A stretch of 35,350 bases of DNA from Psammoneis japonica (GCA_008632985.1 QPGO01000110.1:248001-283350), one strand, 5' to 3'. Shown: positions 1 through 34,921, numbered from the stretch's first letter. Program-made: numbers and translations. Notes: generated from the letters alone by a model not told the origin.

Positions 1-40
1 TGCATTGGGGCCTCTGACATGGCAGACTCCATGTGCTGAC

Positions 41-448
41 AATGTGTTCCAGCTCTCTAGCCAGGTGGGACCTTGCACTGCTGAACTGTGACATCAACAG
101 TTTTTTGGATCATGTCGCACGTTGCACACGCACATTTTTATGTGTGATGTTCTGCCAAATTGTTTCATGCTCCCTGTTTTGCAAAGCCAAAGGCTTTCTG
201 TTTTCAACATTTTTGAGAGAACAAAAATGCACTGGGTGCATTCTTTAATGTCTGTGAAACACACCCGGGCAAACTGTCAATGATGTGCTCCAAGTGTGAA
301 GGAGGAGATGCGTTCGTAACACTGCCTCTTTTTCTGTTGGCAGTCATCATTTGCATTTTCATTGCTTGACAAATTTGCTGCGGAGCTCGCACGTAGAGCT
401 CCATGGACCAAATGTCACACGGAGTCCCGCCTGAAGCTGGAACCTGTT
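41..448 (+). mobile_element. Degenerate ~400 bp MITE (family A, GACGCGTTCCAG-type termini)
   Basis: Ends AATGTGTTCCAG...CTGGAACCTGTT, flanked by a TGAC duplication (37-40, 449-452). Internal blocks (CATTCTTTAATGTCTG, TGCTGCGGAGCTCGCAC, ATGTCACACGGA) match the copies at 14563, 26479 and 29547. Confidence 0.75.
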
Positions 449-452
449 TGAC

Positions 453-2800
453 AAAGGCGGCCGGCTTGTCTGGTGCATTCTTGCCCACAGACACAACCTG
501 TTTTGCACTGCACGGCCGAATTGCCGTGACACCTCCTGAGCCAGAATTTTGTCACCATGACAAAACCACGGCTGCTGGTGACATGCTCTTTTGTTGTGGT
601 GACTGCTCAACAAGACGTTTGCTTTCCCTGACACCACTTGCACACTTGACAACAGAAACCAAGAGGTTTGCATCAAGCAAGTCACATTCCTTGTTGTGCA
701 CTTTCCACGGGCTCAGGAAGCATCAGTGCTGATGCTGTTTTTTTCTCTTCAGCTCCCATCATGGCACAACCCAACACATCTCACTTGAAGATGGTCATCT
801 CCATTGCCATCAACTGGAGCCTGCCACCACTGGCATGTCTGCCAGCTTTGGTGCTCCTCTTCCTGTGGGAGTGACAACAGACAAATCATCCACGCCCTCT
901 CCCAACCGCAAGCAAGATCCTCAGAGGAACCATCACAATGGTGTCTGACTTTGCCCTTGCATCTGCCATGTGAAAAAGAAGAATGCAAACAGAGTGTGAA
1001 GGACTTCATTGATGCTGCTGATCAAAAGAGATGTGTTGTCATCATTGCCTGTCTTGTGCCAACAACAGGAGGCCACGTGGAAGTGGCAATGTCAAGAGCA
1101 ACAACATGAGGGAGGTGTCCTGCATCCTGCTGTCACCTGTTTTGGAATTCTTGTTCACCACCTGAATCTTCCGGCATTCATTGATGGAAAAACATTGATT
1201 TGGGACAGACACCATGCAAGTCTGTGCTGCTCTTGATCGCTTGCTGTGCAGCGAGAAAACTGATTCAAGCGGTGGCCTTTTGATGACATGGTCAGCTCCA
1301 ACTGGTTTTGCATTTGAGCACTTGGGTCTCTTTTTGGACAATGCCCTGAGAATCGACTGTGGAAGGCAGTTGACCCAAACAGCATTTTGTTTGCCAATGA
1401 GCCACACCAGTGTTGCATGACATTGGCAGTTGTGCTGTTGTAAGATTGCACACTGAAGCTGCTCCAGTCAGCTGCAAACACTCTGTCAATGACAACGGCG
1501 GGGACCCAAGACAACCGACATCATGTTCCAGCTCTGTGACAGAGCAGCCCCAATCAAACACTGCTGAAATCAACTCTTGATTCTTGTTGCCAAACTCTTC
1601 CAGATGAGAAGCCCTGTCATGTGACCCCCAACAAAGCAAAGGACAACCACAATCTCAATTTGGATCATGACAAATGTCACCGCAACAATTTCCAAGCTTC
1701 ATCTCATGCTGCTGCATTGTCAACCAGGCATTCAAACAATGTGGAATGGGAGTTTTTTGCCACCTCCATCAGTTGCGACAGATTCAACAATGCACGCTGA
1801 AACTTCAAATGGGGGCTGAGGCAACACAAACCCCGAGACAATGGTTTGAAGACTCTGCCTCCTTTTTGCAACTTTGTCTCTTGCTGCAAGTTTTCTGACT
1901 TTCTCACGAGCTTCCTTCTCTGCTTCACCAGCTTCCTCGACTGCTGCAAAATTTTCCTTGACTTTCTCATGAACTTCCTTTTCTGCTTCCAGCATTTCTT
2001 GAGAGCTGCAACATGCGCTCTCATTTTCAAGCATCAGCGGGAGACTTCTCGTCTTGTTGGGGATGTTGCTGGAAGGAGGTGACTCCTCATCAACATGTTT
2101 GCATTGCCTTGAGACTGCCTTTGACACATTTTGCTCATGTCCAGAGTGACTTCTGTGGCAGAAAGTGAGTGAAACAGTGCAGGAGTGTGTTGTGACAAAT
2201 CAGCAAAAACAAAAGAAAGAGCGCAAGACTCCAGGAATGGTTGAAGCATCTGGTTGCCAGCATTGATGTTCCACCAGATTCCATCCTGTGGACGATGAAA
2301 ACAACAACACCCTTGACACATTGGCGTCCATGCATGTGACGTTGTTTCAGCAACAAAGTGCGACAGTTGATGGTGGCACATGTCCGGTCACACAGGTGGC
2401 TCAGAGTTTGTGAAAAAAAGGAAGAGGAAAAGGAGGAGGGGAGAGAAAGGGTGCAGGTTCAGAGTGTGCGCACGATGGCCAGACTGATGGTGATGACTGA
2501 AAATTTTCAAATTTTTTGTGCGATGACTCGTTTGCATTTTTGGAATGTTGTTGCAGCTGCATTGATGTCAACAGTGACCAACATCAACAGCAGAAGCTCT
2601 CATGTCTCCAACAAGGTGTCAACTGTGCCAACTGATCCTCGAGTTGGAGAGAATGTGAAACAGTGTTTTTCTTGCTTTTGCCGCACTTTGCCATGTAAAA
2701 ATCAGCAGAGTGCAAACAATGCACACCTTCTTTGCCGTGAAACTGAGGTTGCATTTTGAAGCACAACAAGCTCTGCATTTTTGTCCTTTCAATTTGTCTG
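453..2800. repeat. TpA-depleted degenerate block, probably TE-derived, with coding remnants on the minus strand
   Basis: About 7 TpA in the first 2.8 kb (count by eye). Many overlapping Cys/His-rich, Tyr-free ORFs and no recognisable intact domain. Confidence 0.5.
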
Positions 2801-3397
2801 TTCTGTGATCAGAGTTCCGCCAAATTCTGTTAATTACCCCACTTATTGAAACGACATCGCCAAAGTTCAGGTTGGTTATAAATGACATTCATCATTTTAT
2901 AACTTGATTAAACAATGTTTCTGTCCCGTTTATCGCCAACCCGGACATTTTGAAGCAATTCGCGTCTTTTCGCGACAAATCATCAATTCATTTAAGAAAA
3001 TGTCGCCAAATGCGACAAAATGCCGTGTGTCCCTGCGTGCGACATGTCGGGCGAGATGTTGAAGATGTCGCATGTTTCTCATGATCGACATTCTCTGCGC
3101 ATTTCGGCCTGACACGGGTGTCGAGTGTGATGTTGATTGTTCTTTATGGGGCCTGCACCGCATTAGCTGCTGGCTACTAGCTAGAACTAGCTAGATCGCA
3201 AGAGTTGAGTGGCTGGTAGAAAGTAGATAGAGACTTACCGGTATTTTCGTCCACTGAGGTAAGTCCAGCTTTCTAGACGTATTCGTTATGATGACATCAC
3301 CCCGAAAGCTGAAAGCGGGACCAGGCCCACGTTCTCACAACTCAACTCACAGCCGCGTATCATAACGCAGCAACAATAGGTAGAAGAATACCACCAT

Positions 3398-4033
3398 ATG
3401 AAGCACGTTTCGGCTTTGTCGTTTTGGTTTGTGGTTCTCGCCATTTGGCGTGTTTCGACAACGACAGCACAGAGCTGTGCAGGCGCAGGTGAAGAAGCCA
3501 AAAGTTGTGGGGGTAGAGGGCCCATCCCCAAAAAGTGCTGTGGGGACCTTGTTTGCAGCTCTGGTTTGTGCCAAGAAGGAGGCGGGGGCGGAGGTGGTGG
3601 AGGAGGAGGCACCGGAGAAACCTGTCCTACCACACTCAAGACATCCTGCATTGCCTTTGCCAAGGCCGGTGGAAGGTGCCAGTCGCTTCATTTCATCGTT
3701 CGCGTCGTGGACGAGCACGACAATCCTGTGGTCGGGGCCGAAGTTACCGCTACGCCGGAATCTCCGGATAGCGGTATCGAGCCGCCCTTTACGGGGACTA
3801 CGTCTGCTTCCACCTTCAAGGGATACAAAACGGCTGTCAAGGAACAGTGTGGCGATGGATCGGACGATGAGTTGGTATATGTAGGCGGCACTCCCGCCAG
3901 ATGCTGGCAGCAGACAGAGATCGGTACCTACAAAGCCACGGTTACGCGCATCACCTGGGATCGATGTCCCGATGCAAGCTTTGATCCCACCGACAATTTC
4001 AAGGAATACTATTACAATGGCCAATGCGATTGA
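3398..4033 (+). CDS. Secreted Cys-rich protein, 211 aa, function unknown
   Basis: Hydrophobic N-terminal signal, small 6-Cys module (SCAG...SCG...KCCGDLVCSSGLC), poly-Gly linker, then a beta-rich segment (VRVVDEHDNPVVGAEVTAT). Normal Tyr and TpA content. Confidence 0.75.
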   Translation: MKHVSALSFWFVVLAIWRVSTTTAQSCAGAGEEAKSCGGRGPIPKKCCGDLVCSSGLCQEGGGGGGGGGGGTGETCPTTLKTSCIAFAKAGGRCQSLHFIVRVVDEHDNPVVGAEVTATPESPDSGIEPPFTGTTSASTFKGYKTAVKEQCGDGSDDELVYVGGTPARCWQQTEIGTYKATVTRITWDRCPDASFDPTDNFKEYYYNGQCD

Positions 4034-4289
4034 CTGCAACTGGTAAGGGATCACGTAGGTGGATAGTGGCATGTTCTAAGACGATGGATGTGATGTTGGT
4101 CGATGCATTTTACTCGTTGAGTAGAAAACTATACTACGCAAGTCTACTGCTAGCTAGACTAGCTCCTCTGTGCACTCTGTGGCTGTGCATTGATGTTTTT
4201 TTTTTTTGCAGTGTATTATGATGCATAACTGTTTCGTTGAGCAATTTCCACACGACCAACATGGTCAAGTTCATAGGAAGCCAGTCGAA

Positions 4290-5470
4290 GATCCAAAGCT
4301 TGCGGTTAAGCTCGTGTTTGCAGGGGGTGCGACTCCTTCGATATGATCATACCGATGGATTGTTCTGCCGCTACTGATGGCACGGATGCCCACTAGAGCT
4401 CCAGAGCAGTGCGAGATCCCTTTTTCATCTGGTGAGGGAACAGACGCTTCCTATTCAGCTTATAAATCAGGTTGGATGCAGCAGCTCTAAAATGAAAGCA
4501 AACAGGGTTCTTTTCCAACACCGTGTCGTGTTGGGACGAGAATCGCGCAAAGAATGTTTCCGTGAGGACACCTATACAGCTCTTTGCCCACATTACCATG
4601 CAACCGAATGGAAAGAGTCTACACGTATTCAAAAAGGGGGTTGGCAATGGTGTGATAGGTCGTCTGTCGACGGCATTGACTGGGCGTGGACAAGCTCGCT
4701 GCAAGTTTCATAGCTTTCGACACCACTTCCATTGCTTTGGTTGATAAACCGGGAGCACTAGTTAGCATTTTGGAAGCGGTGGGTCAATAGATTACTTTGA
4801 TCCTGAAATAGTGACGCTGTACCGAGAATCCGTGAGTAGATCATGCTCTCTTCTTGAGAATGATAATCTGCATTCAACTCCTGCCGGAACGACTGTCAAC
4901 AACGACTTTGCGACCTCGGATCTTGGGCAGTTGGGATCACCTTTCGAACTGCTAGATATTAGAGAATCTGAACAATCGATTCGCAATGAGGCAGTTTCTG
5001 CTTTTGTCGCCGAGTTGCAAGATGAAGGAGTCTGGAATCGAACCGCAATAATTCAGACACTCGATTTCGCTCGCACCTTGAATCCCAATTCCCGAGGAGG
5101 ACCTCGCCGAGCTGCAAGATGCAGGAGACTGGAATCAAACAACATTAGTTCAGGCACGCGTTTTCGCCCGCACCTTGATTCCCAAAAGTCGCGACGAGGA
5201 CCTCTGGGGCGTCAATTATTTCATGTTTGCGGAGGAGCTGTGAAGCGTGGAAAGATTTTGGGTGAATATCCGGAAGATCTCACTGATGCGGGTCCGCTAA
5301 ACTTGGGACGAGGAATAGTGCTGCCCATGACGAGCTGGATTCAAGTGATTCTAGATATCGCTGAGTGCGGTGCGGTGTGGCGTGGAGGACGAAGCCATTT
5401 TTCCGACAACTTTAGCAAGGATGGCTTGTATGAAGAGGTTGCATTGATCCAATGCTTCTATCCGGAATAG
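4290..5470 (+). pseudogene. DUF1501-family pseudogene (frameshifted)
   Basis: Motifs GGCDSFDMIIP, QLFAHITMQ, GVIGRL, AFVAELQDEGVWN..IIQTLDFARTLNPN and GGAVKRGKILGEYPEDLTDAGPLNLGRG lie in different frames with stops. Contains an internal ~98 bp tandem duplication. Confidence 0.75.
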
Positions 5471-5593
5471 CATTCACTTTTTTAATCTTTTGTGCAGTCT
5501 CTATCTTTTATCGCGTCTGCCCCACGAAGATCGGCATTGAATAGCGTAGATATTATGTAACTCATAATCCAACGTCTCGCCATCTCGGTTGTT

Positions 5594-7397
5594 CTAATTA
5601 TCTTCTTTCTCCCACGCATCCGCCACTACATCCCATAACGTTCGGCACAACAACAGCTGCTTTTCGTCAAAGTCACGAGGGAGCTTGTCGGGATGAAGAA
5701 AGAATTTGAGCTTCCGTACGGCTGCAAAACAGGCTTAAGATGAGAACTGTGGTGCAACGCGGTTGAACATTTTTAACGATAGAGAATGAAACTCACCTCG
5801 TTTGAGGACCGCTGGATTACTAGACGACAACGCATCTGAGGAATATGCTTTGTGTTTGCCAAAGTATTCATGGGATTCAATCCCATAGGCTGGCGGAAAG
5901 GTTGTGTGAATCGACGCCAAGAGCTCTTGAATCGGCCTTAGTTGTTGAAACGCCGGTGGTTGTAGAGCCCACGTGGTTAAAATCTGCTTTTTCACATCCG
6001 GCTGCTCCACGTTTGCTTCCTTGGAGGCGTTTTCAGATTTCAATAAATTTCCAGCATGAGCAACGGACGGCTGCTGTGTCTGAGACGACGAAGGACGTTG
6101 TTGGCGATTTTGAGAAGGATACATTGGCGGCGGACTGGTTGACGAAGAATGCTGCGCATAATGTTGTGGTGTTGTAAATGGTGAAGGCTTCGGTCGAGTG
6201 CTGTGCATGGCTCGAATTAAGTCAACATTGATCCATGGTGTAACGGTCCTGGTAATGGGGTTCCACTGTGGGCGTTCTTGTGCCATGGTTGCCTGCAAGG
6301 CGTTCAAGAAGCCGTTCAAGTCGTTGGTAGGGGTTGAGAGACGCGGTCCATTTGCACCAAAGAGCAAATTGCAAAACTCGCTGACTTCTTCTAGGGTCAA
6401 TGCGCGTTCGTCAAGTGTATCCAAGAGAGGAATGGTGAATCCCATTTCTCGCATACGATGAAGCGGGAGTCCATACGTGAGCCACGGATTGCGAAGATAC
6501 ACCTCAACGCCTTCACCAAAGAAATCATCTAGTACATCGTAGCCGAGATTCAAATTGGCATCGAGTGAATTGTAAAAGTCAAAAACAGACTCGTCATCTG
6601 TACAGAGTCGTACTACAATCCATACGGGCAAGGTTTGAAATTGCTGCAAGCTCTGCACAAATTCTTGAATGACCCGAGGGCCACTCTGCCCCTGGTTGTC
6701 GGTGGGCAAGCCCTGTGTAGCCAAGACAATGGTTGCTCGTTGTCGGTTCTGTTGTAATTGCGGGGCTATGGATGATAGATAACGATGAATCTTTTGAAGA
6801 TGCAACGATAGAGGGTTGGGTCCAGCCGGTTGGAGCGTTGTCATGGTTTGCTTCAAGACTTGCATTTCACTTGCAATGTTGTTGTTAGCTTCGCCTACAC
6901 CAAAAACAGGAGGGCCACCATTAATTGGAGGATTCACCAAGGCAAATCGTGTAGGTAGCGGTAGTACCGAAGCAGCTTGAGCATGATAGGCAACACAATC
7001 TTGCAGCTCCCGCCATCGAGTCGCTGGAGCTTGAGACGGCTCCAAGTGAAGAAAATCCTTTCCAGTGATCAAGTGTGCATCTTGAGCAAGCATAAATTGA
7101 CTATTGTCCAGAATCCATATTCTTAGGGGTGTCGAATCTGCATGATTTCCCAATACATGAATTAACCCTGCATGATAATAGGTCGGTTATTAGTCTTCTC
7201 GAATCGTGTATAAGAATGCAATAAGGGCGAGATCATCAGAGAGTTGTCTTTCGAGTCAATTTACCTGTTGGAAAGCCTTGTTGTCACAAGTATTGGACTT
7301 GATTTTCATTAAGAGCTGAAAAAGTAGTAGAACTATGGGCATTGGGTTGTTGTTGGTTTGCTGCGGCCAGCGGATCAAAGGCGTTTAGATTCGCCAT
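5594..7397 (-). CDS. vWA-like domain protein with C-terminal HPD-containing (DnaJ-like) helical region; 3 exons (7397-7265, 7167-5797, 5721-5594); in-frame TGA in exon 1, so possibly a pseudogene or null allele
   Basis: GT-AG introns 7264-7168 and 5796-5722 join the frames. Motifs IWILDNS, IVLATQGLPTD, WIVVRLCTDD, DVLDDFFGE and LKFFLHPDKLP. TGA at 7284-7286 in QYL*QQGFPTG. Confidence 0.75.
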
Positions 7398-7574
7398 GGC
7401 CGCTTCTCTTTTTGTGTGCGATGTGCGATGCGATAGATGCGTGCGATGCGAAAGGCGCGAGCTCGTGCGTTTTCGCGAGCTCCGAAACACACAGACGACC
7501 GAAGTAGGTACGTGTTCGGTAACTTCGAGCAAAACAAACAGACACAAAGACAACTCGCACAGCACCACTCTCAT

Positions 7575-7850
7575 TGACAGGATTTGAACAGGATTTAGGT
7601 GCGCGCGAAGCATCGCGCGCTGTTTAGTTTACCGTGCACAGTTTTGTGTGCTTTAGTTCCGCGCGTTCACGCGCGATGTAGTTTGCTTTCGAGCCACAAG
7701 GCTCACAAGAATAATAACAGTAGCCCGATTATACCGACTCACACGTCTTTCGGCTCCTGTAACGGTCTCTGAGCGGAGACTCATCTGCTATTTAGACAGC
7801 AGTAAGGAGTTATTGTTTGAATTCTTGCCATTTGCCTTCATTTTCTGTCA
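7575..7850 (+). repeat. 5' LTR (276 bp)
   Basis: TGACAG...CTGTCA; direct repeat of 13911-14186 with 10 substitutions. Confidence 0.97.
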
Positions 7851-7861
7851 GATTAACAGTC
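7851..7861 (+). promoter_or_regulatory. Putative primer-binding site complementary to a tRNA-Asn(GTT) anticodon arm
   Basis: GATTAACAGTC directly follows the LTR. Its reverse complement GACTGTTAATC has the form of tRNA positions 30-40 with a GTT anticodon. Confidence 0.5.
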
Positions 7862-8793
7862 TTGCTCATTGTCAACCCATTGAGCAACCGCCATCGTCGT
7901 CGTTGATTTACCAACGACGGTATTTTTAATTCTACGTGGACCTCCGTATATATTCTACATACATCGGCAAGTCTACGCGCATTCAATACCAGGGCATCGG
8001 CAGGAAGTTAACGTCACCGTCAAGTCTCCTTACCGCTGGATATCTGGATTGATTATACTACCTTTGATCGCTGAAGACATACATTCAACGGTCATATCCA
8101 AGTCTATCCTTGATCCTCATCCCTTGATATACCTATTCATCGGTTAACGGTCAAGAACCCTACATATTCAAGGATCTTCGTCGCTGAAGACATATATATA
8201 TATACACATCTTCACGGCCAAGAACCTGTACCCACTCTTTGGACTGCGGTTTTGCTGCCACTCTACAAGCACACCGAGTCCATTGTACCTGATCTACCCC
8301 GGACTGCTGGTGCTCTGCAGTTCCACTAGGTCCACGAGGACGACTGTGAGAGCAAGCAGCCGTGATTGCAGCCTGCGTTGGGGCGAGGGTGCTTTCCCGC
8401 GTTTGTTCGTTCGTCCACAGTGCCTGACGCCTGCGTCAACTGGCCAGCCTGATCGGGAAATCCAACCGACATAAAATGAGAACGGTTCGGGGGTCTTGTC
8501 CACCTCTGGTCAGCTCACCTGCAGGGGTTTACAACCCGCTGCTCCGCTCGCAAGCAACCCAAAGCGCCGCTGGCTGCGGGTTCGGACGTGCCGGCACAAC
8601 TCTACGGACCGGATGGGAAGTTTAGCACTCAACAACGAACGGGATGACAAAGCCCGGCGACTTCTGATTTTAAGACAGTTCAAGATTTCAAGTCAAGTCC
8701 ATTTCAAGTCAAGTCCATTCTCACCCAAGTTTCGAGTCTGCCTTCGCTTCCCAACCAGAATTGATTGTCCTGACACCATTTTTTTTGTCTGCC

Positions 8794-10350
8794 ATGGTTC
8801 TCACTCGTCAGCAACAAACCGATGGTTTCGAGCACGTGGTTGGAACCGTGCTTGCCCAAGGTGCTGGGAGTCCTCTTCGTTTGGCTTTGGCCCAAGACGG
8901 CACGGACTCATGTCAGGAACTGTTCACGTTCATGCCGTCCCAAATCGACTCGCTTGAGTGCGACAACGGCACCAATGCAATCCCTTTGCCCCATGGTTAT
9001 AAGAACATGTCAGCAGCACCAGTCAGTCTGTACATTGTTAAAGCACACAAAGGTCTTGACGTTGCCAACGACTCCTCTTTGTTCATGCATGACGAGTTCC
9101 TTGCCTGCCGCCTCAGCCCCGACTGCATGTCTTCTGTGTCCATCGGCAGCTCACCCCTTGCACCTCCACATGTCACCAACCCGACCAAGGCACGCGACCC
9201 GGTGCGGGACTTCAAGCGAGGCATCAAGCGTGATCCCACCGCTTTCACGGCTCTCAAATCCGACAAGCAGTGGCACACTTGGCACACCTCACTTGTGGCA
9301 CAAGCCCGTGCCCAAGACGTCGAGTGCATTCTAGACTCGTCGTACAAACCGACCAGCCCCGAAGACAAACTGCTCTTTGCTGAACAGCAAAAGCACATGT
9401 TCGCCGTCTTCGAACGCATCCTTCTCACCGACAAGGGCAAGGCTCTCATTCGTGAAAATGTGGGGTCTTCTGACGCACAGACCGTCTGCCGCTCCTTGTC
9501 TGAGCACGCGCTTGCCTCCACCCGCGCATCCATCGAGTCCTCCACCCTGCTCACGCACCTCACCACCGCACGTCTTGGTGATGGCACTTGGAAAGGTCCG
9601 ACCCACGGGTTCATCCTTCATTGGCAAGATCAGTTGCGCAAGTGCGAGGCACTCATCCCGGCCAGTGACCACTTCTCTGAAGGACAGAAGCGCGTCATGC
9701 TCGAGAATGCCGTGCACCCTGTCGAGGAACACCGTGCTGTCAAGAACCAAGCTGATCAGCATCGTACGCAGAGTGGCAAGAGCCTCACATACGATCAACA
9801 CTGTGGCTTGCTCCTCTCCGCGGCAGCTCAGTGCGACAGCACGTTTCAACCCAAGACGACACCTCGAGCTCCCCGACGCGCCATGTGCGCACACGACGTC
9901 CACTCCGAGGAACCATCCGACGATGTGTTCTGCGACATTGACAGCGACGTTGACGTCCTTCAAGCCAATGCTGCCTGCACCCGTGGTCCCAGCCTCACCG
10001 GTGTCCAATGGAGACGTCTCCCTCCCGACCACCAATGGCTCTGGGATTCGTTGCCCGATTCCTCCAAGGCGATCATCCTTGAGCATTCCCGTCCACCTCC
10101 CCGCAACCCGCGAGCCAGCAACTGCCATGAGTCTGTTACGGCCAACCTTCACGACCAACACCTTGGGAGTGACGGTGATGTCAACTTGTCCAACACGACT
10201 CCTGCTGACTCTGGTGACTCCGCCCCACATGTGGACGCCACTTCGGATGGTCCCATCCTGGCGCACCTCACCAAGCGCAAGCCACTGCCACCCGGTGATC
10301 CGCAACGTCTGTTGTCTCCTGACCAAGCCCCCAATGCGACCTTGCACTGA
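8794..10350 (+). pseudogene. gag: Copia gag (mutated; truncated before the protease)
   Basis: CoDi-type gag motifs FKRGIKRDP..F..LK.DKQW..W, ARAQDVE.ILD, LF.EQQK.MFAVF, ILHWQDQLR, MLENAV. Tyr almost entirely replaced by Cys or His. Confidence 0.85.
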
Positions 10351-14186: not shown

Positions 14187-14227
14187 CTCATCAACAACTG
14201 TCGTTAGGGTTTTCTATCCTTGGACAA

Positions 14228-22391: not shown

Positions 22392-22867
22392 CCGGAGGTA
22401 TGTCAATAGTAGCGAAGTTATTTTTGCTATTGAAAAATCTCGACACCAAAAATACTTATCGAAAATCGGCTTTCGTCAGTCACTAAAACACACCCAGTTG
22501 CAGCGACTGACGAAAGCCTTTTTTCGATATCTTCAGTTGTAAGAGCTGTAGAGCAAGAGCAAAGTATAGAAACAGTATACAATCCTGTATGAGATTTCGG
22601 AACTCCGGATTAAATGTCAAATTTATGATACGACTAATGTTTGTATATAAATACAAAAATCAATTAGAAAAAGGCGAATATAACCGTTATTTTTCCTTAA
22701 ATAAATACCAAATTTTCAACGACAAACATTCGCTTTCCGCTCACTCCGACCGATACAACATGCGTTTGACCTTGTTCAGCTCGTCGAGAGCTTTCCACCG
22801 ATATATGGGTCTTGGGGTCTGCGAGGCGATCCTGAAAAAAAGTTCGCTACTATTCACATACCTCCGG
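22392..22867. mobile_element. Tc1/mariner-type MITE, 476 bp, TA TSD
   Basis: 25 bp TIR CCGGAGGTATGT(C/G)AATAGTAGCGAA with TA on both sides, AT-rich interior, internal inverted repeat at ~22457-22528. Confidence 0.88.
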
Positions 22868-23099
22868 TAGCTCATACTTTAAGAGAGTAAAGTAGCTACT
22901 ACTCTAGGCTACTAGTAGCTAGAGCTGGAGTAGTAGAGAGGGTAGAAGGATGAGAGGGCTTACGCTAAGCAACAAAGGCGACATCTTGATCAGAGAGAAT
23001 CACGCCGGTATCCTGTGGATTTGGCATCATCCTGATCCGTACAAATAAGCGCTTCTTTATTTACCAAGATTCTCTTATCCTCTAATGGGTCTAATGTAA

Positions 23100-24200: not shown

Positions 24201-24256
24201 TTAAGAGAAACCACCATTCTTCTCCATTTGGTTCACGCTATGCTCTCCGACTACGA

Positions 24257-25615
24257 TTACTGGGGGGAGGTGATAGAGCCCTGTAGGCTCCCCACAACAA
24301 CGGAGGTGTTATTGCGATCAGTACTGTTGCAGAAAATCGTTTCGTTGTCACCATGCAAGAGTAAATGCATTCGTTTCATGAATTCCGGTGTTTTGATACG
24401 ATGGAAGGAGACGGTTTCAGTTGACGCTGCGGCCAGACCTAACTTTCGTGTGGAGTTAAATTTTCTGCGGATCCAATCTAGCTGTCCCATCCAGAACCTT
24501 TTTTCTCCATTGCCAGCTTTGCCATCGAATCGATACAGAAATTCTGCGTCAAAATGGTGGTACCGAAACTCTCCAAGGTGGTCTTGTGAATTGTACGGGT
24601 AAATCCCAAGGTTCCAAAGACATATACCCATGAAAAAGTCCTCCGCACTTTCATTGGTTTCGTTGTGACACGATGGAAGGGCCTCTTGAACAAACCGAAT
24701 TAGCGCTTCTCGGCTGAGCGTATATCCTGGACCTCCCCCATTGTAGTAAAAGCTACGGTTCGGGGCTTGATCTAACCTCCAAAATGGCATTATTGGCGCT
24801 CCAATAAAGAGGGGCTCCGAGTGGTTCATCTCGGGTCTTTGCAAGTAGGACCGTAAGTTGTCGACAATCAGGTAAACATCGTCTCCACAAATATGAAAGT
24901 ACTCGTAGTCTTGAAGGAAATTGTCGTGAATGTACGACAACATGGATCGGACCTTTTGCCAAATGCTGCCATAAGTTCCCTCTGTTCCGTAGTGCGGAAT
25001 GTGCACTGTTCCTGTTGCTTCTTCTGTAAAGGTCGAAGCCGCCATGTACCCGTCACACTGACGCCCCCACGTATCAATAATTGCATTTGTCCGATGGACA
25101 CCACCGGGGTATGTGTACAGCGCACAAAAAATCCGCACTCTTGTCGTTGATGGTGCTTCTGAAACACGCACCTTTTCCGCCAGTAGCCTGTAGCCACCCG
25201 CACCCTCTGGGCCCTTTCCGGGAGGAGCACATATCTGTCTTTGCTCCGTCGCTGAAACCGGAAAGCGCCCTCTCCGTTTTTGCAATACGGTAGGATCGTG
25301 AACATATCCCCAATTCTGCTGCTGATCCAGGGCGCCAGCGTACGGATAAGGTTGTGGAGGGAGAAAGGGATATTCCTTGACAGGAAGCTTGGATTCATTC
25401 CAAAAAGTCCATGTGCTGACATTTCTCGTTTCCTGTGCATTGCTTACGTTCTTATCGGGTGGTTGGGCGACTAGTGCTGTACGTTGTCCATCATCGTTGT
25501 GACTGGCACTAATGGTGAAACTGGAGAGGTTTCGTGACAGCCGCAACAAATTTGACAACAGGTACGCCAGACACAGTATCCAAATGGACTTTCTTGTAAA
25601 CAATGTTGGAATCAT
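24257..25615 (-). CDS. GT31/Fringe-family beta-1,3-galactosyltransferase (C1GALT1-like), ~452 aa
   Basis: N-terminal TM anchor, TWGRQCDG, IWQKVR, YFHICGDDVYLIVDNLRSYL, YNGGGPGYTLSREAL, AEDFFMGICL, SFHRIK. Confidence 0.9.
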   Translation of the reverse strand: MIPTLFTRKSIWILCLAYLLSNLLRLSRNLSSFTISASHNDDGQRTALVAQPPDKNVSNAQETRNVSTWTFWNESKLPVKEYPFLPPQPYPYAGALDQQQNWGYVHDPTVLQKRRGRFPVSATEQRQICAPPGKGPEGAGGYRLLAEKVRVSEAPSTTRVRIFCALYTYPGGVHRTNAIIDTWGRQCDGYMAASTFTEEATGTVHIPHYGTEGTYGSIWQKVRSMLSYIHDNFLQDYEYFHICGDDVYLIVDNLRSYLQRPEMNHSEPLFIGAPIMPFWRLDQAPNRSFYYNGGGPGYTLSREALIRFVQEALPSCHNETNESAEDFFMGICLWNLGIYPYNSQDHLGEFRYHHFDAEFLYRFDGKAGNGEKRFWMGQLDWIRRKFNSTRKLGLAAASTETVSFHRIKTPEFMKRMHLLLHGDNETIFCNSTDRNNTSVVVGSLQGSITSPQ

Positions 25616-26334
25616 GATGCCAAGTGTCCATGCTCTCTGTAGCATAGCATCACAAAAAACGAACAAGGCACTCATTGCGTAGCCTACACAGGCAAACGAT
25701 AAACGATAGAATCCACCGACTCGCACGGAATGTGTGCGCGACTCCGTCAAGAGCAACACCTCAAAACCGAGTGGATTCCAATGTATCGTGTAAAGCTTGG
25801 CATGCTGTTGTGTAACGGACATTGGCAACGGTCGGGGTTCAGGTAACCGATGTGACGTGGTGTCGGAGGGAATGTTCGATGAACGTTCCTCCAATGGCGC
25901 TCACTTGTTGCAAGCAGTTGTGACAGGCCTCAGAGTGTCTTTGGATCGTTGTGTCGTCATCATGCGCCAGCACTGCGAGCAGCTGAGCGCCCTTGCTTTG
26001 TCAGAGCCAAGTTTCCGCACTCCACGGTTTGGTGATTGAAGCAACAACCAGCGTGGTTGCAGCGGCCATTGTCTTGTTGGCATGGTTTTGATGACGAATG
26101 CTGATCAACCTGGGGCTGTTCATGCCAATGACAAGTGATGCCTTTGCATCAGTGTGTGCGCAAAGCAGTGGGAGATGCGGCCACATCTCCGTGCTCTCAT
26201 GGCTTGCATGCATCGTCGGCACAATTTGTGAATGTCAGTGTTTTGACGTGCTTCTTCCAACACAACTGCACCCTTTTTGATGCTCTCATGACCTTGGATT
26301 TTGCCATGGCGGCAAACCCTCAAACCCGATGGAG

Positions 26335-26478
26335 GACGTGCTGACATGTGACACAAACAATTTTTGTCATCCGTCACATGTTTCGCACATGCATTTCTGC
26401 GTGTGATGTTCAAAAAAAAATTGTCCAGACTTGCTGTTTTGCAAAGCCCCAGATGTTTCACATGACAAATTTACAGGA
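26335..26478 (+). mobile_element. Family A MITE fragment
   Basis: Matches the left third of the family A interior (TGTGACACAAACAATTTTTGTCATCCGTC...CATGACAAATTTACAG). Confidence 0.75.
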
Positions 26479-27265
26479 GACGCGTTCCAGCCCCATGGCG
26501 AGTCAGAATGAAAGCTGTGTTCCGCCCGAAGCTTCCGCGTGCAACAGGGGGGGTGTCAAAATTGCCCATTTGTCACAGCACGTAGAATCTGTGCAGGTTC
26601 TTGCATTGACCTTGCTGTGGGCACAGTCAGCAAACAACCTGACAATCACAGCATGCAGGGCCTGCGCAGGTCCTGGCATTGAACCTCTTGTCAGCGCATG
26701 ACCTGCGTGGTCACGGCTGCAGCTTTTGGCAGTCGATTCTTCCCGGGACTGACTGGCAACGAACTGACTGTCAGCACAGAATTTGCACCAGGTGCTGTGG
26801 AAGCTGTGATTGGCAAGTGGGCTGTGATCCAGAAAGGAGTGTGGAACCTTGAAGGGGGGGGAGGGGGTGGAGGCGGAACACACAATCAATTCGGACTCGC
26901 ATGGGTGGGAGCTCGCAGCACTGATGTGTGACACAAACAATTTTTGTCAGATCCGTCGCATGTTTCGGGTGTGCATTTCTGTGTGTGGCACTCCAAAAAA
27001 ATGGTCCAGACTCACTGTTTTGCAAAGCCCCAGACGTTTCACACAACAAATTTGTGGAAAAAATGATGCACCAGCTGCATTCTTCAATGTCTGAAGAATG
27101 CAACTGGCTGAGCAAAAAATGATGTGCTTCAATCATGGACGAGTTTGTGCGTTCGCAAAATTGCCTTATTTTCTGTTGGCGATCATTGACATTTTCATTG
27201 CCTTGCAATTTTGCTGCGGAGCTTGCACGCAGAATTCTGCACGCCACCTGCATCTGGAGCGCATC
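26479..27265 (+). mobile_element. Family A MITE split within its left TIR by a second insertion
   Basis: GACGCGTTCCAGCCC at 26479 resumes as GGTGGGAGCTC at 26904 and ends CCACCTGCATCTGGAGCGCATC at 27265. Confidence 0.85.
26496..26901. mobile_element. ~405 bp MITE nested in the family A TIR
   Basis: Imperfect TIRs GCGAGTCAGAAT..TGTGTTCCGCC / GGCGGAACACA..ATTCGGACTCGC. Flanks CA and TG sit at a site that is TA in the TIR copy at ~15560. Confidence 0.7.
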
Positions 27266-27289
27266 AGAGACAGCCCTCACCTGGATTGG

Positions 27290-27720
27290 TTCCCACCTGC
27301 AGGTGCAGCGCACCACAATTGTGACCAACACTGCAGTGTTTGATGATGTTGTCAACGTGAAGGAGTTGGATGTTGACACTCTTGTGCAGTCCTGTTCAAG
27401 GAGGGCTGCAGCTGAAAGGCATTTCCACTCTGGATTGGCCCACACCCATCACCCAAAGTCCGTTGTCCATTGGGTGCAGGACTTTCAGCATGTTGGTGGC
27501 ATGGATCGAACAAGTTTTCTGGATGCGCTGTCTGCCGCGTTGACCAGGGCCAAGATTCACAAACTTCCAGATTGAGGACCAACCCAAGTCCACTGCTTGT
27601 GGGGCATCCCCCAGACTCTTGGAAAGCAAAAACAAGTGGGCAAAATGGAGCACCGCCTTCTAGAACATGCTTGGCGTGACATTGGGCATGGATGGCATTC
27701 TGTTGATCCACATTGCATCA
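27290..27720 (+). pseudogene. Fragment resembling a gag N-terminus from a second copia family
   Basis: RHFHSGLAHTHHPKSVVHWVQDF..SFLDALSAALTRAKI..ASPRLLESKNKWAKW resembles diatom copia gag N-termini (recognised from memory, not searched). Confidence 0.5.
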
Positions 27721-28254
27721 GAGGCCGCAGCACAGTGTCATTCACTTTCTTTTGGAAATTTTGGGACATTCAACCGCACAAAAGCACGTCATCATTGTTC
27801 AACCTCAATTTCAATTTCAACAGTCAAGTTGAATTTGTTGTTTCCTTTTCATGTGTGCAATTGTTGCCTTTTTGTTTTGATTTGAATTTGCCAAAGACTT
27901 TCAACCTGCATTTCATGTTTTTAAAACAAGTTTTGTTTTGATGAATTTGTTGCATGTTCATGGAAACGTCAGCTTTGACAGTGCTTTTCAACAGCTCCAC
28001 TGCAGTCTTGCCATCACCACAGACAATGGCATTTCTTCCATGCCCAAGTTGGCCACATGAGTGTCTGGCTCATTGTTTTCACCTGTGCCCACCAGCCCTC
28101 CATTCAATGGCTCCCTGCCTGCATTTTGGTGCATTTTCTGCATGCGCAATGCTCTGCCCATTTCATGACAGCACACCCTCTCCCCAAAATGCATTTGACG
28201 AGAGGGTGCACTGTTGTGATTCCTGTGCATTCCACGTGAATCAGCAACTGACTG

Positions 28255-31200
28255 TTGGCCATGGCGGCTGGTGACTTTACCCCATCTGACAACAAGGTCG
28301 ACCCTGACCCTTCTTTCCAAATTTCTGAGGACTGTGATTTTGATGAAATGGAACATTTCACCAACGGCTTTGGATTCGAAGTGTTCCAACCCAAACTCAA
28401 AAGCACAGCTGCAATGCATGCCTCCAAAAAGCAGTTTTTGGAGATGACAAATTGGACCCCCTCTCCAGAATTCCTTGCTCTTCCCTTCCTTTGTCACAAG
28501 CCGAAGCCACGTTGTGTTCCACATGTTGCCGAAGTCATCCATGCCAACGACATTGAAAGGAAAACTCTTGGCTGTCCCCACATTTGGTCCTGCACAATGA
28601 CTCGATGTTGGCCCACTGAGAAATCTCGCTGAGTGAAAGGCGAACATGTCCTGCGATGTAAAAATCTCAAGGAGGCTCTCCATTTCTCCAAAACATCCAG
28701 AGAGACAGAAAAAGAACAGCAGAGCCGCGCGCTTCTCCACCGTGACATCCAGGCGATGGTGGAATTTGTTTGTGCGATCATTGCTGGAGACGACCCAAAT
28801 GATCCCGCATCTGGTTGGCCTTGTTTCCGATTTTTGCGTTGCAAAAGTCTCCAAAGTTTGATCAACGATCGAGCCCAAGACCTCCACAGTGCACATTTTG
28901 TCACTGACATTGTCACGCGTCATGTTCAGTGCAAACCCAAGGACATGGACCATTGGCTCCTCAAGATTTGCCGTCATGTCAACACCCAAAAGGAATGGCG
29001 CCTCTTTGTCAACAGCTTTCTGGTTGCATGCGATGCCAATGATCCTGGTTCTCAGGCGGACAAGATCAAGGGGTTCCTTGGTGACCAAACCAGCAACATC
29101 AAAAACACATCTGTTGTCTCAAGGCCCCTCCTCACACCCCATGATTGCACACGCCCCACCAGAGCTTTCCTTGACCAAGGCCAAGCCTGCATCTTGCTTG
29201 AAGACCAGCACCTCCTTTGTTGTCTGGCAATGTGCCGTCATCTGGGGAGGCGCGCCGGACTCTCACTGCCAACCTTCCATCACTCTCAGAAATGATGGAA
29301 AACCGAAAACCTGCTCCTGCCTCCAAAGGTCCTTTGTCCAAACTGCGCTCCTCTCCTCCATCTGTTTTGGCAAATGTTCCTGTGGTTGCATCTCCTCCCA
29401 GCAACCCCAACGACATGTCGTGGATGGACAAGTCCACACTCCACGATCGCTTTGACCCGCCCAAGTGTCGGCCCACCACCACCGAGGAAGTTGCTTCTCA
29501 TTTGTCACACCTGCACATCATTGACAAAGCCATCGGCACTGATTGAGACGCATTCCAGCCCTGGGTGGGAGCTCTCAGCACTGGCGTGTGACACAAATGA
29601 TTTTTGTCATCTGTCGCATGTTTCGCACGTGCATTTCTGCATGTGACATTTAAAAAAAATGTCTGGACTCGCTGTTTTGCGAAGCCCCAGACGTTTTGTG
29701 TGACAAACCAATGGAAACAACAGCGCACCAGTTGCATTCTTCAATGTCTGAAGAATGCAACTGGCCAAGTAAAAAGTGATGCACTTCAATCATGGGCAAC
29801 TTTGTGCGTTTGCAAAATTGCCTCATTTTCTGTTGGCAATCATTGACATTTTAATTGCCACACAATTTCAGTGCGGAGCTCGCACGTGGAATTCTGCGGC
29901 CCCAATGTCACACGGATTCCCACCTGCATCTGGAATGCATCTCGAGTGCCTCATCATTCCGCCACCGACTTTTACCTGGCGGACACCTTGTGGGAAAACT
30001 GGCACACATTCTCAAACAAAACTCCTTTGTGTGATTCCGCCACTGCATCTTGTGTCCAAACCGAGTGCCCTCCTGACCTTGATCACTTCTCCGAGGAACT
30101 CTCTGTTGCCTGACAAGCCAACTCTCTGCACAAAGGGCACTTTGGGTGCCTTTGTGTGTGCATTCCCACCCTTCTTCTGTTTGTTCTGTTGAAGGGCAAG
30201 TCCAATTTGAGACGTGACGGACCGGCTGCAGCTTTGAATGGCAAAGGACGCAGGACAAAGTTCGGTTGTGCAGGGCAAGCGCACCACCCAAAGTTGCCGG
30301 GCTCTGCCAAACTTGCTGAACCCAAGGCTGCCTGTTGACTTCATGGTTTTGAGTCGATGACAACTTTGATGCAAACAAGTCATCCAAAATCAAGGCAATG
30401 GCAGCCGACATCCTCGACTCGATTCAGCTGTGCAAAAATGAGGTGAAGCTGTGGAAACTGAGCAATCCGCCACCATTTGACTGGCTGCCATGGTGCGAGG
30501 AGTGCTCGAATCAGTTGGGCAACAAAATGGACTGTCTTTTCTTTAAACGCAAGGACATCGCCATGCAGGGATTGTGCATTTCCCGGGGTCAAGTCTGTGA
30601 TGGTCACCATGACAAAAAAAAACTGCACCTGGTGTTGACACAGGAAGACAGCCGCAGGTTGCTTTTTTGTCATGGATGCCTTTGGTGACATCTGGTCCTT
30701 CAAGGTGGTTGCCAACAGCAGAGCCACCATTGGCGAACACTGTGATGACCAGTGCGACATGAAGCCTGTGCTTGCTCGCATGCACCACAATTGAGCTCAG
30801 CTTGATTTTGCACTTAAAGACTTGGACTTGCAGCACAATGGTCCCACCCACCCAGATGTGTTGCTTGCCAGCAGTGCGTTCAAGCATCTTTCCCTTGACA
30901 ACAACAGGCCATGGGACAATGTTCCAACTGGCGGAGGGGGGCAATCTTCGCACGTTGAGGTGTGCATGGACTGGCTCAAGTTCCCGACATTCCCAGTCAG
31001 GGACTTCCACGAATTGGGTCGTTTGACAAAATCTGTGTCGCCAGGTGGGATGGTGCACTCTGATGACAGGGGTGTGGCTTTGATTGAGTTTGAGAGCAGC
31101 AAACACGCGGTTGACCCTCACCTGCGCTGCGACTCCATGGACCTGTTTTGCATGTTGAATGATGACGACATCCAAGAAAAGTGGGAGGAGCTGTGGAAGA

Positions 31201-33607
31201 AGAGGCGCAACCACATGGTTTGGGTGCAAGACCATGTGAGGGATTGGAGCGGTGAAGCAATTGAGCACGTGCACGCCAGCACACACATGTTCTCAACTCA
31301 CAATGACCTGCCCTGGGTGAGCGGCGTTGTCAACCGTGGGACAAATGCTCGCCAGTGCAAGGAGCATTGGGGCTGCATCACGACTCACCAAGACAGGCAA
31401 GGAGGGTGCACTGGGTCAACAGCACTGGCCACAATGAAGGAGAGAAAGAGCTGATGGATGACTTTGCAGTGGGTGTGTGTGATGATGCAAAACTGGTCAT
31501 TGACAGGGGAGACGTTTCAAGATTGAGACAGAAGTCGAGCGTCAGCTTGCCGACTTGTGGAGTGGATGAGACAGGCACTTGCAGACCATTGGGAGAAACA
31601 TCAGCAAGGGGAGGCTCTTGCAGACCAGCGATGGACAAGAAGGACATTGTTTGCGATGCACTGAAACTGGCAAAGTGGCTCCAGCATGACATTGTGCGAG
31701 ACTGCCATGAAAGACTTTGGCTCTGTGAGGAAATGGAGTTCCTCCTGTTGTCTCCAAGGAGAGTCAATGAACGGACACTGGACATTGTCGCAAAGGAGGA
31801 TGGTGAGTGGGAGAACTTTCACACAAGGAGAGAGGAAATGCGCTGGGTGGAGAGACGTCATTGCGCTGAAGTTGACGAATTTGTGAGAGTGGTCGGAGTG
31901 GAGACGAGGGCTTTCACCAGCATGACTGGTTGTTCCGACGTCGGGCAATGCAGCAGGTTTGGAGTTACAAGGTCAGAGGGAGATGACAAACTGGACCAGA
32001 AAAAACGATTTGGCACCAAAAAGGATGGATGTGCTTGGGCCCCAACAGCAAACCGGAGCGTCGTTAAAGCAGGTGAGGGGTTTGTTCATTGCAGCAAAAG
32101 TGGAATGCTTGTGCACGCCATTTGCGCTGTGGAAGTGGATTTTGACATTGCAGCAAAAGAGAGGTTTGAACTGGAATTCGCAGGGATTCAAAATTTTCAA
32201 AAGACAACGAGGAGTGGCAAAACAAACAAGTTGCACACACATCAAAAGATTTGGTTGATTCTCCATTGTGTTGCATTTGAGAAAAGAGAACCGTTGGTGG
32301 AAAGCATGAGATTTTTTGAAAATTTCCCAACGGCAAAATCAGCCAGGGACACAAGGCATGGAGCCACCCACAATTGGCAACAGCAGCACAGGCAATGGCG
32401 AGGAAGAAGAAGAAAGAAAGTGCGGGGGTGGCTGGAGATCAACCAACCAGCCCAAGGCTGGCCGCGGCGTTGGCGCGGGTGGGAGCCACTGGGGATCACC
32501 AGTTTGCAAAGAGAGAGGCAGAAGAGGTGGCGCAGAAGGAACTTTTCCCAAAGGCAAAGTTCCTTGTCAAGGCGGACATGGCAAGCAGTGGCAAAGTGTC
32601 GCGGCTCATCAGGAAAAGACAGCCGGCGGCAATTGCAGCAAGCAAGACTGGGCAGGAGCATGGGAAGACTGGGCAAAGAAGTGTGCCGCACGCTCAATTG
32701 ACGCAAAAAGGAGTGCGGTCACTCAGGCGATCAAGAACAATGCAGCGACTGGTGAGTGTTTTGTGGTGCACGGCGTGTTGAGCGCAGCTGCACTCAACAC
32801 TGCTGCACCTTAATTTGCTGAAGTCGTGTTGACAGAGAATGAAGCCGAGGAGATGCGCAGTCAGAAGAAGCCAGCAGCAAGAGGCAGAGGAGGGAAGAAG
32901 AGCAAGAAGAGGAAGAAGAATGATCACACAGTGGATGAAGAGCCGTTCCTGGCAACTTGGGAGGAGGAGACAGCTGCAACGATTGTGGAGGACAAGCGCA
33001 AGAACAAGGAAGCACATGCTTGGTTCTGCGAAAACATCCTGAAATTCACAAAGAGCACCACGACATGGAGAAGGAAGGTGGAGTCGGGTGAGACGAAGGC
33101 AGCCGGTCTGGCTGCAGTGAGCGACGAGGCTCTGGGGCTGTTGACGCTGGAAAACTGCTGGAAGAGTTGGGAGCACAAGGCACGTCATGACAAGGCTGTT
33201 GGAGCAGAGGCTCGGATGAAAAGGATGAGGAAGAGTCAGAGCCAACGCCCAAGCACATGGACCCGTCAAGGCAACGCGACTCGTGGAAGGATGCAGGGAC
33301 GCTGCGATTCAACGAACTGCTCGCAGAAGCAAAGAAAGACAGGTTGAGTGAGGAGGGCATGCAGTTTGACACATGGCACAGCGAAGGCAAGAAAAGGAAG
33401 AGTGACAAAAGAGGCAAGGGATTGAAAAGAGAGAGACAGCCAGTGGAGAAGGAGGCAAGTGCACAGGCAACGACAGAGCTTTCAAGTGACAACAAGGAGA
33501 AGGAGGAAGAGGAAACGGACAAGAACAGAGGAGACAAGGAAAGCGAGGAGGAGGATGAAGACAGCGATGTGGGAAGCGAAACGAGCGCAGATGCAGGCAA
33601 TGAGTGA
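28255..33607 (+). pseudogene. Degenerate subtelomeric multi-ORF element, probably a large TE remnant
   Basis: Long co-oriented Tyr-free coding stretches at 28255-29540, 30398-32280 and 32350-33607. The last has VSDEALGLLTLENCWKSW...SWKDAGTLRFNELLAEAKKDR, an acidic tail and a probable GTGAGT intron at ~32752. Confidence 0.5.
29547..29941 (+). mobile_element. Family A MITE, 395 bp
   Basis: GACGCATTCCAG...CTGGAATGCATC. Flanks TTGA and TCGA (4 bp TSD with one CpG transition). Colinear with 14563-14958. Confidence 0.9.
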
Positions 33608-33903
33608 GCTGCGATGTGAAAAGGCAGCGGAGGCTTTTGTCAGTGTGAGAATGGAAAGCAGACAAGCAGCGCAGCAGGCTTCAATGCAAACAGTTGCAAG
33701 GTTCAACAAGGCATTTTGGGGATCATCGATGTGTGATCTGACCTTTCATTTGACAACCAGTGTTTGCAACAGAAGGTTCTTTAAACCCAAGAAATGCAGC
33801 GATCAGCGCTGTTTTGTCATTGAGCACAACGATTTGAACTTCGCTTTAAAAAGGCAAAAAGGGGCGGCACTCTGACAGCCAAGGGTGGGATCCCATGGGA
33901 CAA

Positions 33904-33930
33904 GGGTTGGGGTTGGGGTTGGGGTTGGGG
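33904..33930 (+). repeat. Variant proximal telomeric repeats (TTGGGG)x4
   Basis: GGG(TTGGGG)4 immediately before the gap. Confidence 0.85.

Positions 33931-34880: not shown

Positions 34881-34921
<41 letters not shown>

Follow-up and report, generated by a model that had tools for sequence, protein, structure and literature searches.

Several systems are known in which mobile or silent DNA is altered in a particular sequence context. In repeat-induced point mutation (RIP) of ascomycete fungi, C:G pairs are changed to T:A, mainly at CpA, which creates TpA, AT-rich isochores, and stop codons; in animals, APOBEC3 and ADAR enzymes edit a single strand of cDNA or RNA prior to integration; and CpG decay of methylated transposons is known for the transposable elements of diatoms. 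To our knowledge, outside fungal RIP, dinucleotide-specific DNA hypermutation of silent or mobile DNA is known only from the chlorarachniophyte Bigelowiella natans. Here, we describe a stretch of 35,350 nucleotides from the Psammoneis japonica assembly (GCA_008632985.1, QPGO01000110.1:248001-283350; hereafter the window, to whose whole length all coordinates refer), in which the dinucleotide TpA has been almost erased from sharply bounded blocks, and in which the long terminal repeats (LTRs) of a Ty1/copia retrotransposon record the change.

Hypermutation restricted to TpA has been reported for integrated viral DNA of B. natans (Mettrop et al., bioRxiv 10.64898/2026.01.13.699255, 14 Apr 2026). 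According to the part of the preprint available to us, two integrated viral regions received 231 of the 302 new mutations in mutation-accumulation lines; with a single exception, the 231 were A>G or T>C changes, every such change lying on a TpA that became TpG or CpA, and the rate was about 1000 times that of the background, in some lines only; in addition, TpA-poor, CpA+TpG-rich windows form clusters in the genome, and an ADAT2-like deaminase was proposed but not shown (10.64898/2026.01.13.699255). As far as that part of the preprint goes, the likeness to our locus consists of change from A:T to G:C only, at TpA only and in discrete regions, the remaining genome mutating normally, and of a long-term footprint of scarce TpA with elevated CpA+TpG in window clusters and in reverse transcriptase- and DDE-type coding sequences. 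The two cases differ in host (a diatom-type stramenopile here, a chlorarachniophyte there), in targets (an LTR retrotransposon, unrecognized repeats, and the subtelomere up to the first telomere repeats here; giant-virus and virophage inserts in the B. natans text available), and in degree, since depletion is saturating here (observed/expected ratio [o/e] 0.04), whereas a Rho of 0.45 is given there for the nucleocytoplasmic large DNA virus region. The borders here span a few bases each, and one cuts an element; the rate is deduced from an LTR pair, whereas in B. natans it was measured directly. Besides this saturation and these borders, the locus adds to the preprint the post-insertion timing given by the LTR pair, a neighbor preference in which TAT is lost first and TAA last, and the reach into the telomere base. 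A term search of the available preprint text returned no mention of diatom, stramenopile, telomere, or LTR, and full-text literature searches returned no TpA-directed hypermutation in diatoms or other organisms except this preprint.

TpA is depleted in sharply bounded domains

The earlier note on this stretch, made from the sequence alone, had described a loss of TpA organized in sharp domains, with about 7 TpA in 1 to 2800, roughly 20 in 25900 to 33930, and strong depletion over ~8.8 to 15.9 kb. The depletion is real and sharper than first described. Relative to the expectation from base composition, positions 1 to 2800 hold 7 TpA where 194 are expected (o/e 0.036), 25900 to 33930 hold 18 where 486 are expected (o/e 0.037), and 8800 to 15900 hold 68 where 351 are expected (o/e 0.19), the last block in fact beginning at 8331 and not at about 8800. 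As the note had also stated, TpA is ordinary in 2830 to 8300 (243; o/e 0.66) and in 15960 to 25800 (457; o/e 0.63); the changes are limited to discrete regions, and the gene islands stand at an o/e of about 0.65. Segmentation by a three-state hidden Markov model (HMM) on "T followed by A" yielded the segments 1 to 2830 (7 TA per 777 T), 2831 to 8327 (244/1479), 8331 to 15961 (73/1703), 15964 to 21495 (262/1493), 21512 to 22122 (7/204), 22128 to 25844 (190/1012), and 25851 to 33926 (18/1875). The transitions, for which a few hundred base pairs had been allowed, are accurate to a few bases in this model (2830/2831, 8327/8331, 15961/15964, and 25844/25851), and the proposed sparing of gene islands was borne out by the HMM together with read contigs, in which the expressed genes keep their TpA.

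The source of the window is a diatom or close relative that has no near kin in the databases, and the stretch covers the terminal 35 kb of one of its chromosomes. The named best matches of its acyl-CoA dehydrogenase are diatom-type only, at 52 to 66% identity (diatom versus diatom, 53 to 70%), and its terminal TTAGGG is a telomere repeat reported in diatoms in the part of the source available to us (PMC3622300). It is organized as follows.

1 to 2830: left TA-free block, cut by the window start, with one copy of a ~400-nt repeat at about 61 to 443
2831 to 7574: gene island 1, ordinary TpA, single-copy as far as the LTR; a unitig of sequencing run X1 (depth 56) stops at 7599
7570 to 7574, plus strand: left target-site duplication CTCAT, identical to 14187 to 14191
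7575 to 7850, plus strand: Ty1/copia 5' LTR, unmutated, 15 TA
7851 to 8330, plus strand: copia leader, ordinary TpA (38 TA, o/e 1.08), ending at the HMM border 8327/8331
8331 to 13910, plus strand: copia body, TpA-depleted (o/e 0.15), with the gag/protease frame 8794 to 10338, the pol frame 10334 to 13873, and RVT_2
13911 to 14186, plus strand: copia 3' LTR, 10 of 15 TpA converted
14187 to 14191, plus strand: right target-site duplication CTCAT
14187 to 15961: repeat-rich right flank (o/e 0.27), with the least-mutated copy of the ~400-nt repeat (14563 to 14966 or 14555 to 14970) and very high summed X1 depth
15964 to 25844: gene island 2, ordinary TpA, with acyl-CoA dehydrogenase, methyltransferase, and Fringe-like glycosyltransferase genes
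25851 to 33904: subtelomeric TA-free block (CpG o/e about 0.5), with three copies or part-copies of the ~400-nt repeat (26341 to 26476, 26904 to 27240, and 29547 to 29949)
33905 to 33930, plus strand: four TTGGGG repeats (telomere units in which TG has replaced TA), immediately preceding the N run
33931 to 34734: run of 804 N, concealing the passage from TTGGGG to TTAGGG
34735 to 35350, plus strand: telomere, (TTAGGG)n

GC content does not account for the loss of TpA, because it is 49.7% in the TA-free blocks and 46.5% in the gene islands and because o/e corrects for composition; a TpA profile driven by GC, the contrary outcome named in the earlier note, was thus not obtained, and the LTR pair and the tyrosine losses described below show directional mutation. 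In the TA-free blocks, AA, TT, and AT are retained at o/e 1.21, 1.37, and 0.81, respectively, TG and CA are each at 1.66, and CG is down to 0.48. GC-biased gene conversion at the chromosome end is ruled out by the retained AA, TT, and AT and by a GC content of only 49.7%. The TA-poor stretch at 21512 to 22122 (o/e 0.2) stands outside the phenomenon: it is expressed coding DNA, acidic and Arg-rich, without excess of TG+CA (o/e 1.09). The expressed open reading frame (ORF) to which it belongs, at 20929 to 22191 on the minus strand, has an acidic and Arg-rich N-terminal half and no Pfam match.

The window sequence is present in three sequencing runs only, all of one sample and study and none labeled as RNA. 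In X1, a unitig of 3533 nt covers 22843 to 26375, across the 25850 border, with 0 differences, and TA-free sequence is carried by exact k-mer unitigs at a depth of about 54. X1 is probably the window's own source: an assembler artifact is excluded, and the support is not independent. The summed X1 depth over the copia element and its right flank (7400 to 14186 and on to 16070) is ~1000 to 2000 times that of flanking single-copy DNA, and at 26076 to 27399 it is about 40 to 100 times single copy, neither value being a copy number. The run X2 is labeled "DNA?" but is probably RNA-derived, since one X2 contig skips the GT-AG intron at 16907 to 17002; both islands (2831 to 7574 and 15964 to 25844) are gene-bearing, and X2 covers several of their genes. 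X2 has no depth over 8067 to 14069 and 26076 to 27399, a blank that is not taken as evidence of silence.

The LTR pair dates the change to after insertion

Positions 7575 to 14186 form a single Ty1/copia insertion, with 276-nt LTRs, TG...CA ends, a perfect 5-bp target duplication, and a match to the RVT_2 domain (E 2e-24). Its polyprotein is split over the frames 8794 to 10338 and 10334 to 13873, with the change at 10334 to 10338, and ~160 residues of its relatives (about 530 to 690 of P0122) are unmatched; the copy is defective even apart from its loss of tyrosines. No second copia was found in the window by tblastn with two healthy copia relatives.

The two LTRs of such an element are identical at the time of integration. 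Those of the present element differ at 10 sites, all of which are TA in the 5' LTR and either TG (8) or CA (2) in the 3' LTR, with no difference at the 246 non-TA positions. The 3' LTR has lost 10 of 15 TpA and the 5' LTR none of 15 (Fisher p 2e-4), from which the mutation rate of TpA is, as an indirect lower bound, at least about 90 times that of other bases. Because LTRs that were identical at integration now differ at 10 TpA, the mutation occurred in the chromosome, after insertion, and the change of TpA to TpG or CpA is a DNA-level, post-insertion mutation.

This result bears directly on the possibility that retrotransposition fixed copies whose RNA had undergone ADAR-like A-to-I editing or whose cDNA had been deaminated before integration. 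ADARs are known to prefer a 5' U/T, as the available part of the preprint notes (10.64898/2026.01.13.699255), and on the sense strand of the copia element TA>TG is more frequent than TA>CA (21 versus 8, p 0.024). However, edits in RNA would enter both LTRs, which differ here at 10 TpA; editing of cDNA would yield one product, and one element holds both TG and CA; and the non-copia flank, the subtelomeric block, and the telomere-type repeats are affected as well, with TG equal to CA in the saturated blocks. RNA or cDNA editing as the sole cause is already contradicted, and we consider this route very improbable. What the locus shares with the APOBEC3 and ADAR systems is clustered transitions of the deaminase type, a neighbor-base preference, and a presumed action against mobile or foreign nucleic acid; it differs in that the change is post-integration, on both strands, and reaches DNA other than retroelements.

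Conserved tyrosines and repeat copies give the direction and the strands

The direction of the change was read from 565 conserved columns in 60 relatives of the copia polyprotein. Only 7 of 28 conserved Tyr residues are kept, while 13 are Cys (TAY>TGY), 6 are His (TAY>CAY), and 2 are Phe, which places 19 of the 21 changed residues in the Cys or His class; residue types other than Tyr are kept at 74 to 100%. Tyr makes up 0.84% of the copia protein versus 2.86 to 4.97% in 120 relatives, and at the 65 Tyr positions of one healthy relative the element has Y 11 times, C 27 times, H 10 times, and other residues 17 times. Change of Tyr to Cys or His at conserved columns sets the polarity as TA>TG/CA and identifies it as damage rather than adaptation. 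There is no Tyr-poor member among the 120 listed database relatives.

Both strands are hit, as TG and CA are equally raised in the TA-free blocks. Three copies of the ~400-nt repeat have 45 of their 60 transitions within pyrimidine-purine dinucleotides, and at 13 of 79 pyrimidine-purine sites the copies of this repeat have CA against TG. The copia family itself behaves likewise in the X1 reads: where the window copy has CA, many other copies have TG, and vice versa (9505/6, 9531/2, 9799/800, 11253/4, and 11263/4), and the surviving copia TAs (9790/1, 11686, and 12182/3) read TG or CA in most other copies. In total, the family copies in X1 have 180 kinds of transition places versus 26 transversion places.

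CpG decay likewise generates TG and CA, and both saturated blocks bear its mark, with a CpG o/e of 0.48 that is compatible with long-term cytosine methylation, but the loss of TpA is beyond its reach. The young copia block still has CpG at 0.92, with TpA already down to 0.19, indicating that TpA loss is much faster than CpG decay.

The signature is present in environmental relatives

Metagenome contigs supplied 49 related copia loci, of which 46 have a TA o/e of 0.52 to 1.02. The other three, from diatom-type elements, have the signature of our locus in weaker form: TA is at 0.13 to 0.31 and TG+CA at 1.34 to 1.42, and Tyr has become Cys or His at 15 of 39 positions in L014, 14 of 26 in L029, and 15 of 25 in L035, compared with at most 5 in the other 46 loci. 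L029 and L035 are copies of one family from two assemblies, 94.5% identical over 1723 nt, and L014 belongs to a different family and another project. Between L029 and L035 there are 87 transitions and 12 transversions; 20 sites are CA versus TG, 25 are TA versus TG or CA, and an ancestral TA explains 65 of the 87 transitions.

These loci, together with the tyrosines and the LTR pair, also bear on readings that need no mutator, namely native or selected avoidance of TA and a sequencing or base-calling artifact of modified DNA. TpA is indeed mildly low everywhere, with an o/e of about 0.65 even in gene islands, and the runs containing the window all come from one sample. However, conserved tyrosines have been destroyed, noncoding LTR sites are altered in one LTR only, the TA-free sequence is carried by exact k-mer unitigs at single-copy-like depth (about 54), and the same signature recurs in three contigs of other metagenome assemblies. 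A strand-wise miscall of a modified base, moreover, would add CG besides TG and CA, and CG is depleted. Readings of this kind are, in our view, hardly credible.

Neighbor bases, telomere repeats, and reading frames

The TpA that survive in the saturated blocks (n = 25) lie in restricted contexts: 10 are in TTAA and 9 in GTAA/TTAC, a 5' A is absent from all of them, and a 3' T is present in 2. Among gene-island TpA, a 5' A occurs in 30% and a 3' T in 26%; against these, p is 2e-7 for TTAA and 4e-4 for 5' A. Of the 73 survivors in the middle domain, 4 have a 3' T (p 2e-5). These contexts indicate that TAT is lost first and TAA last. In 33 polarized events, the base 3' of the mutated A was G in 11, A in 10, T in 8, and C in 4, while that of the spared partner was A in 17, G in 8, C in 5, and T in 3.

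The telomere unit presents TAG on the G strand and TAA on the C strand, from which the predicted product is TTGGGG and not TCAGGG. All four repeats before the N run read TTGGGG, and the distal telomere is TTAGGG. This arrangement is consistent with a process that reaches the telomere base while telomerase renews the tip, although only four repeats are visible and telomere variants of the TTGGGG type arise in other organisms for other reasons.

Under the genetic code, TA>TG or TA>CA never makes a stop codon from a sense codon; TAA>TGA remains a stop, and TAG>TGG, TAA>CAA, and TAG>CAG remove one. Since stops cannot be created in this way, the damaged copia retains an open frame of 1542 codons, and the TA-free blocks carry many long ORFs on both strands. 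Annotation of such DNA calls for caution, because TGA is its only stop codon and many of the long ORFs, on either strand, are spurious.

Targeting depends on position

Of the ideas on targeting in the earlier note, which were chromatin or methylation domains and repeat homology, homology alone fits worst, and position matters. The left border of the middle domain, at 8331, falls within the copia element and leaves its 5' LTR and 480-nt leader (7575 to 8330) untouched, though these are as abundant in reads as the depleted rest of the element, while to the right of the border the body, the 3' LTR, and a 1.8-kb repeat flank are depleted. Short multicopy elements in the gene islands (19523 to 19633 and 22381 to 22878) keep their TpA. 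With both the copia 5' end and the short island repeats spared, the target is not set by homology alone.

A homology-triggered, RIP-like process, in which long repeats would be recognized by pairing and the domains would simply be the repeats, gains some force from the presence of repeats in all three depleted blocks and from the high summed X1 depths of the copia element with its right flank and of 26076 to 27399, read as depths and not as copy numbers. It would have to explain why the copia 5' LTR and leader, no less abundant, keep TpA; the multicopy island elements do so too, though they are perhaps below a length threshold. The main target in B. natans is single-copy according to the part of the preprint available to us (10.64898/2026.01.13.699255). 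The direction is also opposite to that of RIP, and stop codons cannot arise. We therefore regard a RIP-like trigger as improbable. RIP and the present process are alike in being DNA-level, dinucleotide-specific transition hypermutation that marks repeats, forms sharp compositional domains, and spares genes. They differ in direction, since here TpA is destroyed, with a slight rise in GC and no means of creating a stop, and in extent, since RIP acts along the full length of a duplication, whereas here the 5' LTR and leader of one and the same high-copy copia escaped.

The borders 15961/15964 and 25844/25851 are located about 120 to 220 bp upstream of the start or end of RNA-derived contigs of expressed genes, a position that would suit exclusion of the process from active chromatin, which we infer to be the basis of targeting.

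One target is the Ty1/copia element, and the two saturated blocks are without recognizable coding content. A Pfam scan of 72 ORFs of at least 80 amino acids (aa) in the TA-free blocks (15 in 1 to 2830 and 57 in 25851 to 33904) gave no match at the family cutoff, the best E values being 0.004 to 0.06; the 376-aa ORF at 27991 to 29118 (minus strand) had no relative at E<=0.01 in a word-indexed search, and the 464-aa ORF at 31307 to 32698 (plus strand) had 0 matches at E<=0.001 among 1.84 billion representatives. The repeat copies at 26904 to 27240 and 29547 to 29949 are in direct orientation, 82% identical, and 2.65 kb apart, and they could be the LTRs of a small nonautonomous element in the subtelomeric block.

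A proposed mechanism

We consider it likely that the repeat blocks were hit, after their placement in the chromosome, by a both-strand TpA>TpG/CpA DNA mutation that is confined to domains and spares expressed genes together with the regions upstream of them. In the proposed sequence of events, the A:T pairs of TpA would have been changed to G:C in three blocks of repeat DNA already in the chromosome, the subtelomere and the left block reaching saturation, with about 96% of the expected TpA gone, and the young copia and its right flank about 75 to 80%. What the sequences themselves show is the signature, its polarity in coding DNA, its timing after insertion, the limits of its domains, and its occurrence in other diatom-type elements from the environment. 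The change may be made by enzymatic deamination of adenine in 5'-TA on both DNA strands, the resulting inosine being read as G. The natural suspect would be an adenine deaminase of the TadA/ADAT2 type, because the tRNA substrate of these enzymes is A34 after the invariant U33; such an enzyme might be recruited to silenced chromatin or have access only there. The likeness to the mutation-accumulation lines of B. natans suggests that a process of the same kind operates in both.

A different chemistry would produce the same record. TpA is self-complementary, and T>C and A>G on opposite strands are the same base-pair change, which sequence cannot separate; the thymine of TpA might be modified (e.g., hydroxylated, of the 5-hydroxymethyluracil or base-J type), or it might be repaired or copied wrongly in silent chromatin that replicates late, and T>C would then result with no adenine deaminase involved. 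The 5-hydroxymethyluracil of dinoflagellates is enriched at TpA and TpC. We know of no precedent, however, for a thymine modification that gives near-complete T>C conversion, and a rate excess of at least 90-fold here, as of about 1000-fold in B. natans, speaks for an active enzyme without naming it. This chemistry is an unlikely alternative.

Several points weigh against the domain-confined mutation of TpA as set out above. The polarity of the LTR differences was assigned by parsimony with the rest of the locus, without an outgroup LTR, and 10 changes toward TA in the 5' LTR are formally possible. For the copia body, depletion inherited from a mutated source copy and depletion that arose at the locus are inseparable. 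Gene conversion of the copia 5' end by a fresh copy would also give the border at 8331. The excess of TG over CA in the copia element could be an effect of neighbor context or of strand, and the rule by which neighbors decide which of the two bases mutates is a weak trend in the 33 polarized events. The saturated blocks, whose contents are not recognizable, may or may not be transposon or foreign DNA. Finally, the enzyme, the inosine, and the link to chromatin are what we infer from the pattern.

Significance

Because a diatom-type alga and, more weakly, three environmental contigs bear the same signature restricted to TpA, the process may be widespread in ecologically dominant phytoplankton. 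A wider reading, which we put forward tentatively and hold to be possible rather than probable, is that diatoms and their kin carry a chromatin-domain-targeted defense by DNA adenine deamination that is run to saturation, erasing TpA from transposon blocks and whole subtelomeres with few-base borders at promoters and turning the innermost telomere repeats into TTGGGG; it would be common in nature and shared across SAR (stramenopiles, rhizarians), not the peculiarity of one chlorarachniophyte. If so, dead elements would become long, tyrosine-free open frames, since stops are never created, and TpA o/e would serve as a time-integrated map of silent chromatin in these algae, obtainable from sequence only. 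Such a proxy for long-term silent chromatin is testable, and the process would offer a natural A-to-G editor of DNA to look for.

Other features of the window

The genes named in gene island 2 are as follows.

16199 to 17626: acyl-CoA dehydrogenase, with the intron 16907 to 17002
19853 to 20779: methyltransferase
24257 to 25900, minus strand: Fringe-like glycosyltransferase

The acyl-CoA dehydrogenase intron is a 96-nt GT-AG intron that is in frame and stop-free, so that the gene reads as a single ORF of 475 codons. In gene island 1, the ORF at 4766 to 5470 contains a tandem duplication of ~100 nt at 5007 to 5204, with 82% identity.

The two short multicopy elements of gene island 2 differ in structure. 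The element at 19523 to 19633 is a 111-nt near-perfect palindrome of two 54-nt arms, 87% complementary and separated by 3 nt, and resembles a miniature inverted-repeat transposable element; the summed X1 depth in its bin is ~3586 versus ~54 for single-copy DNA, and its TpA is retained. The element at 22381 to 22878 is ~500 nt long, lies between 44-nt inverted repeats, has a read depth of 330 to 510 versus 54, and contains 41 TA (o/e 0.89).

A palindrome-based motif, CTACGTAG / ACGTAGAA(A)TCTACGT, is repeated at 15478 to 15495 and 15968 to 15986, flanking the border 15961/15964. In the last ~130 nt of the telomere, there are a few TTATGG and extra-G variants, which resemble read-end errors.

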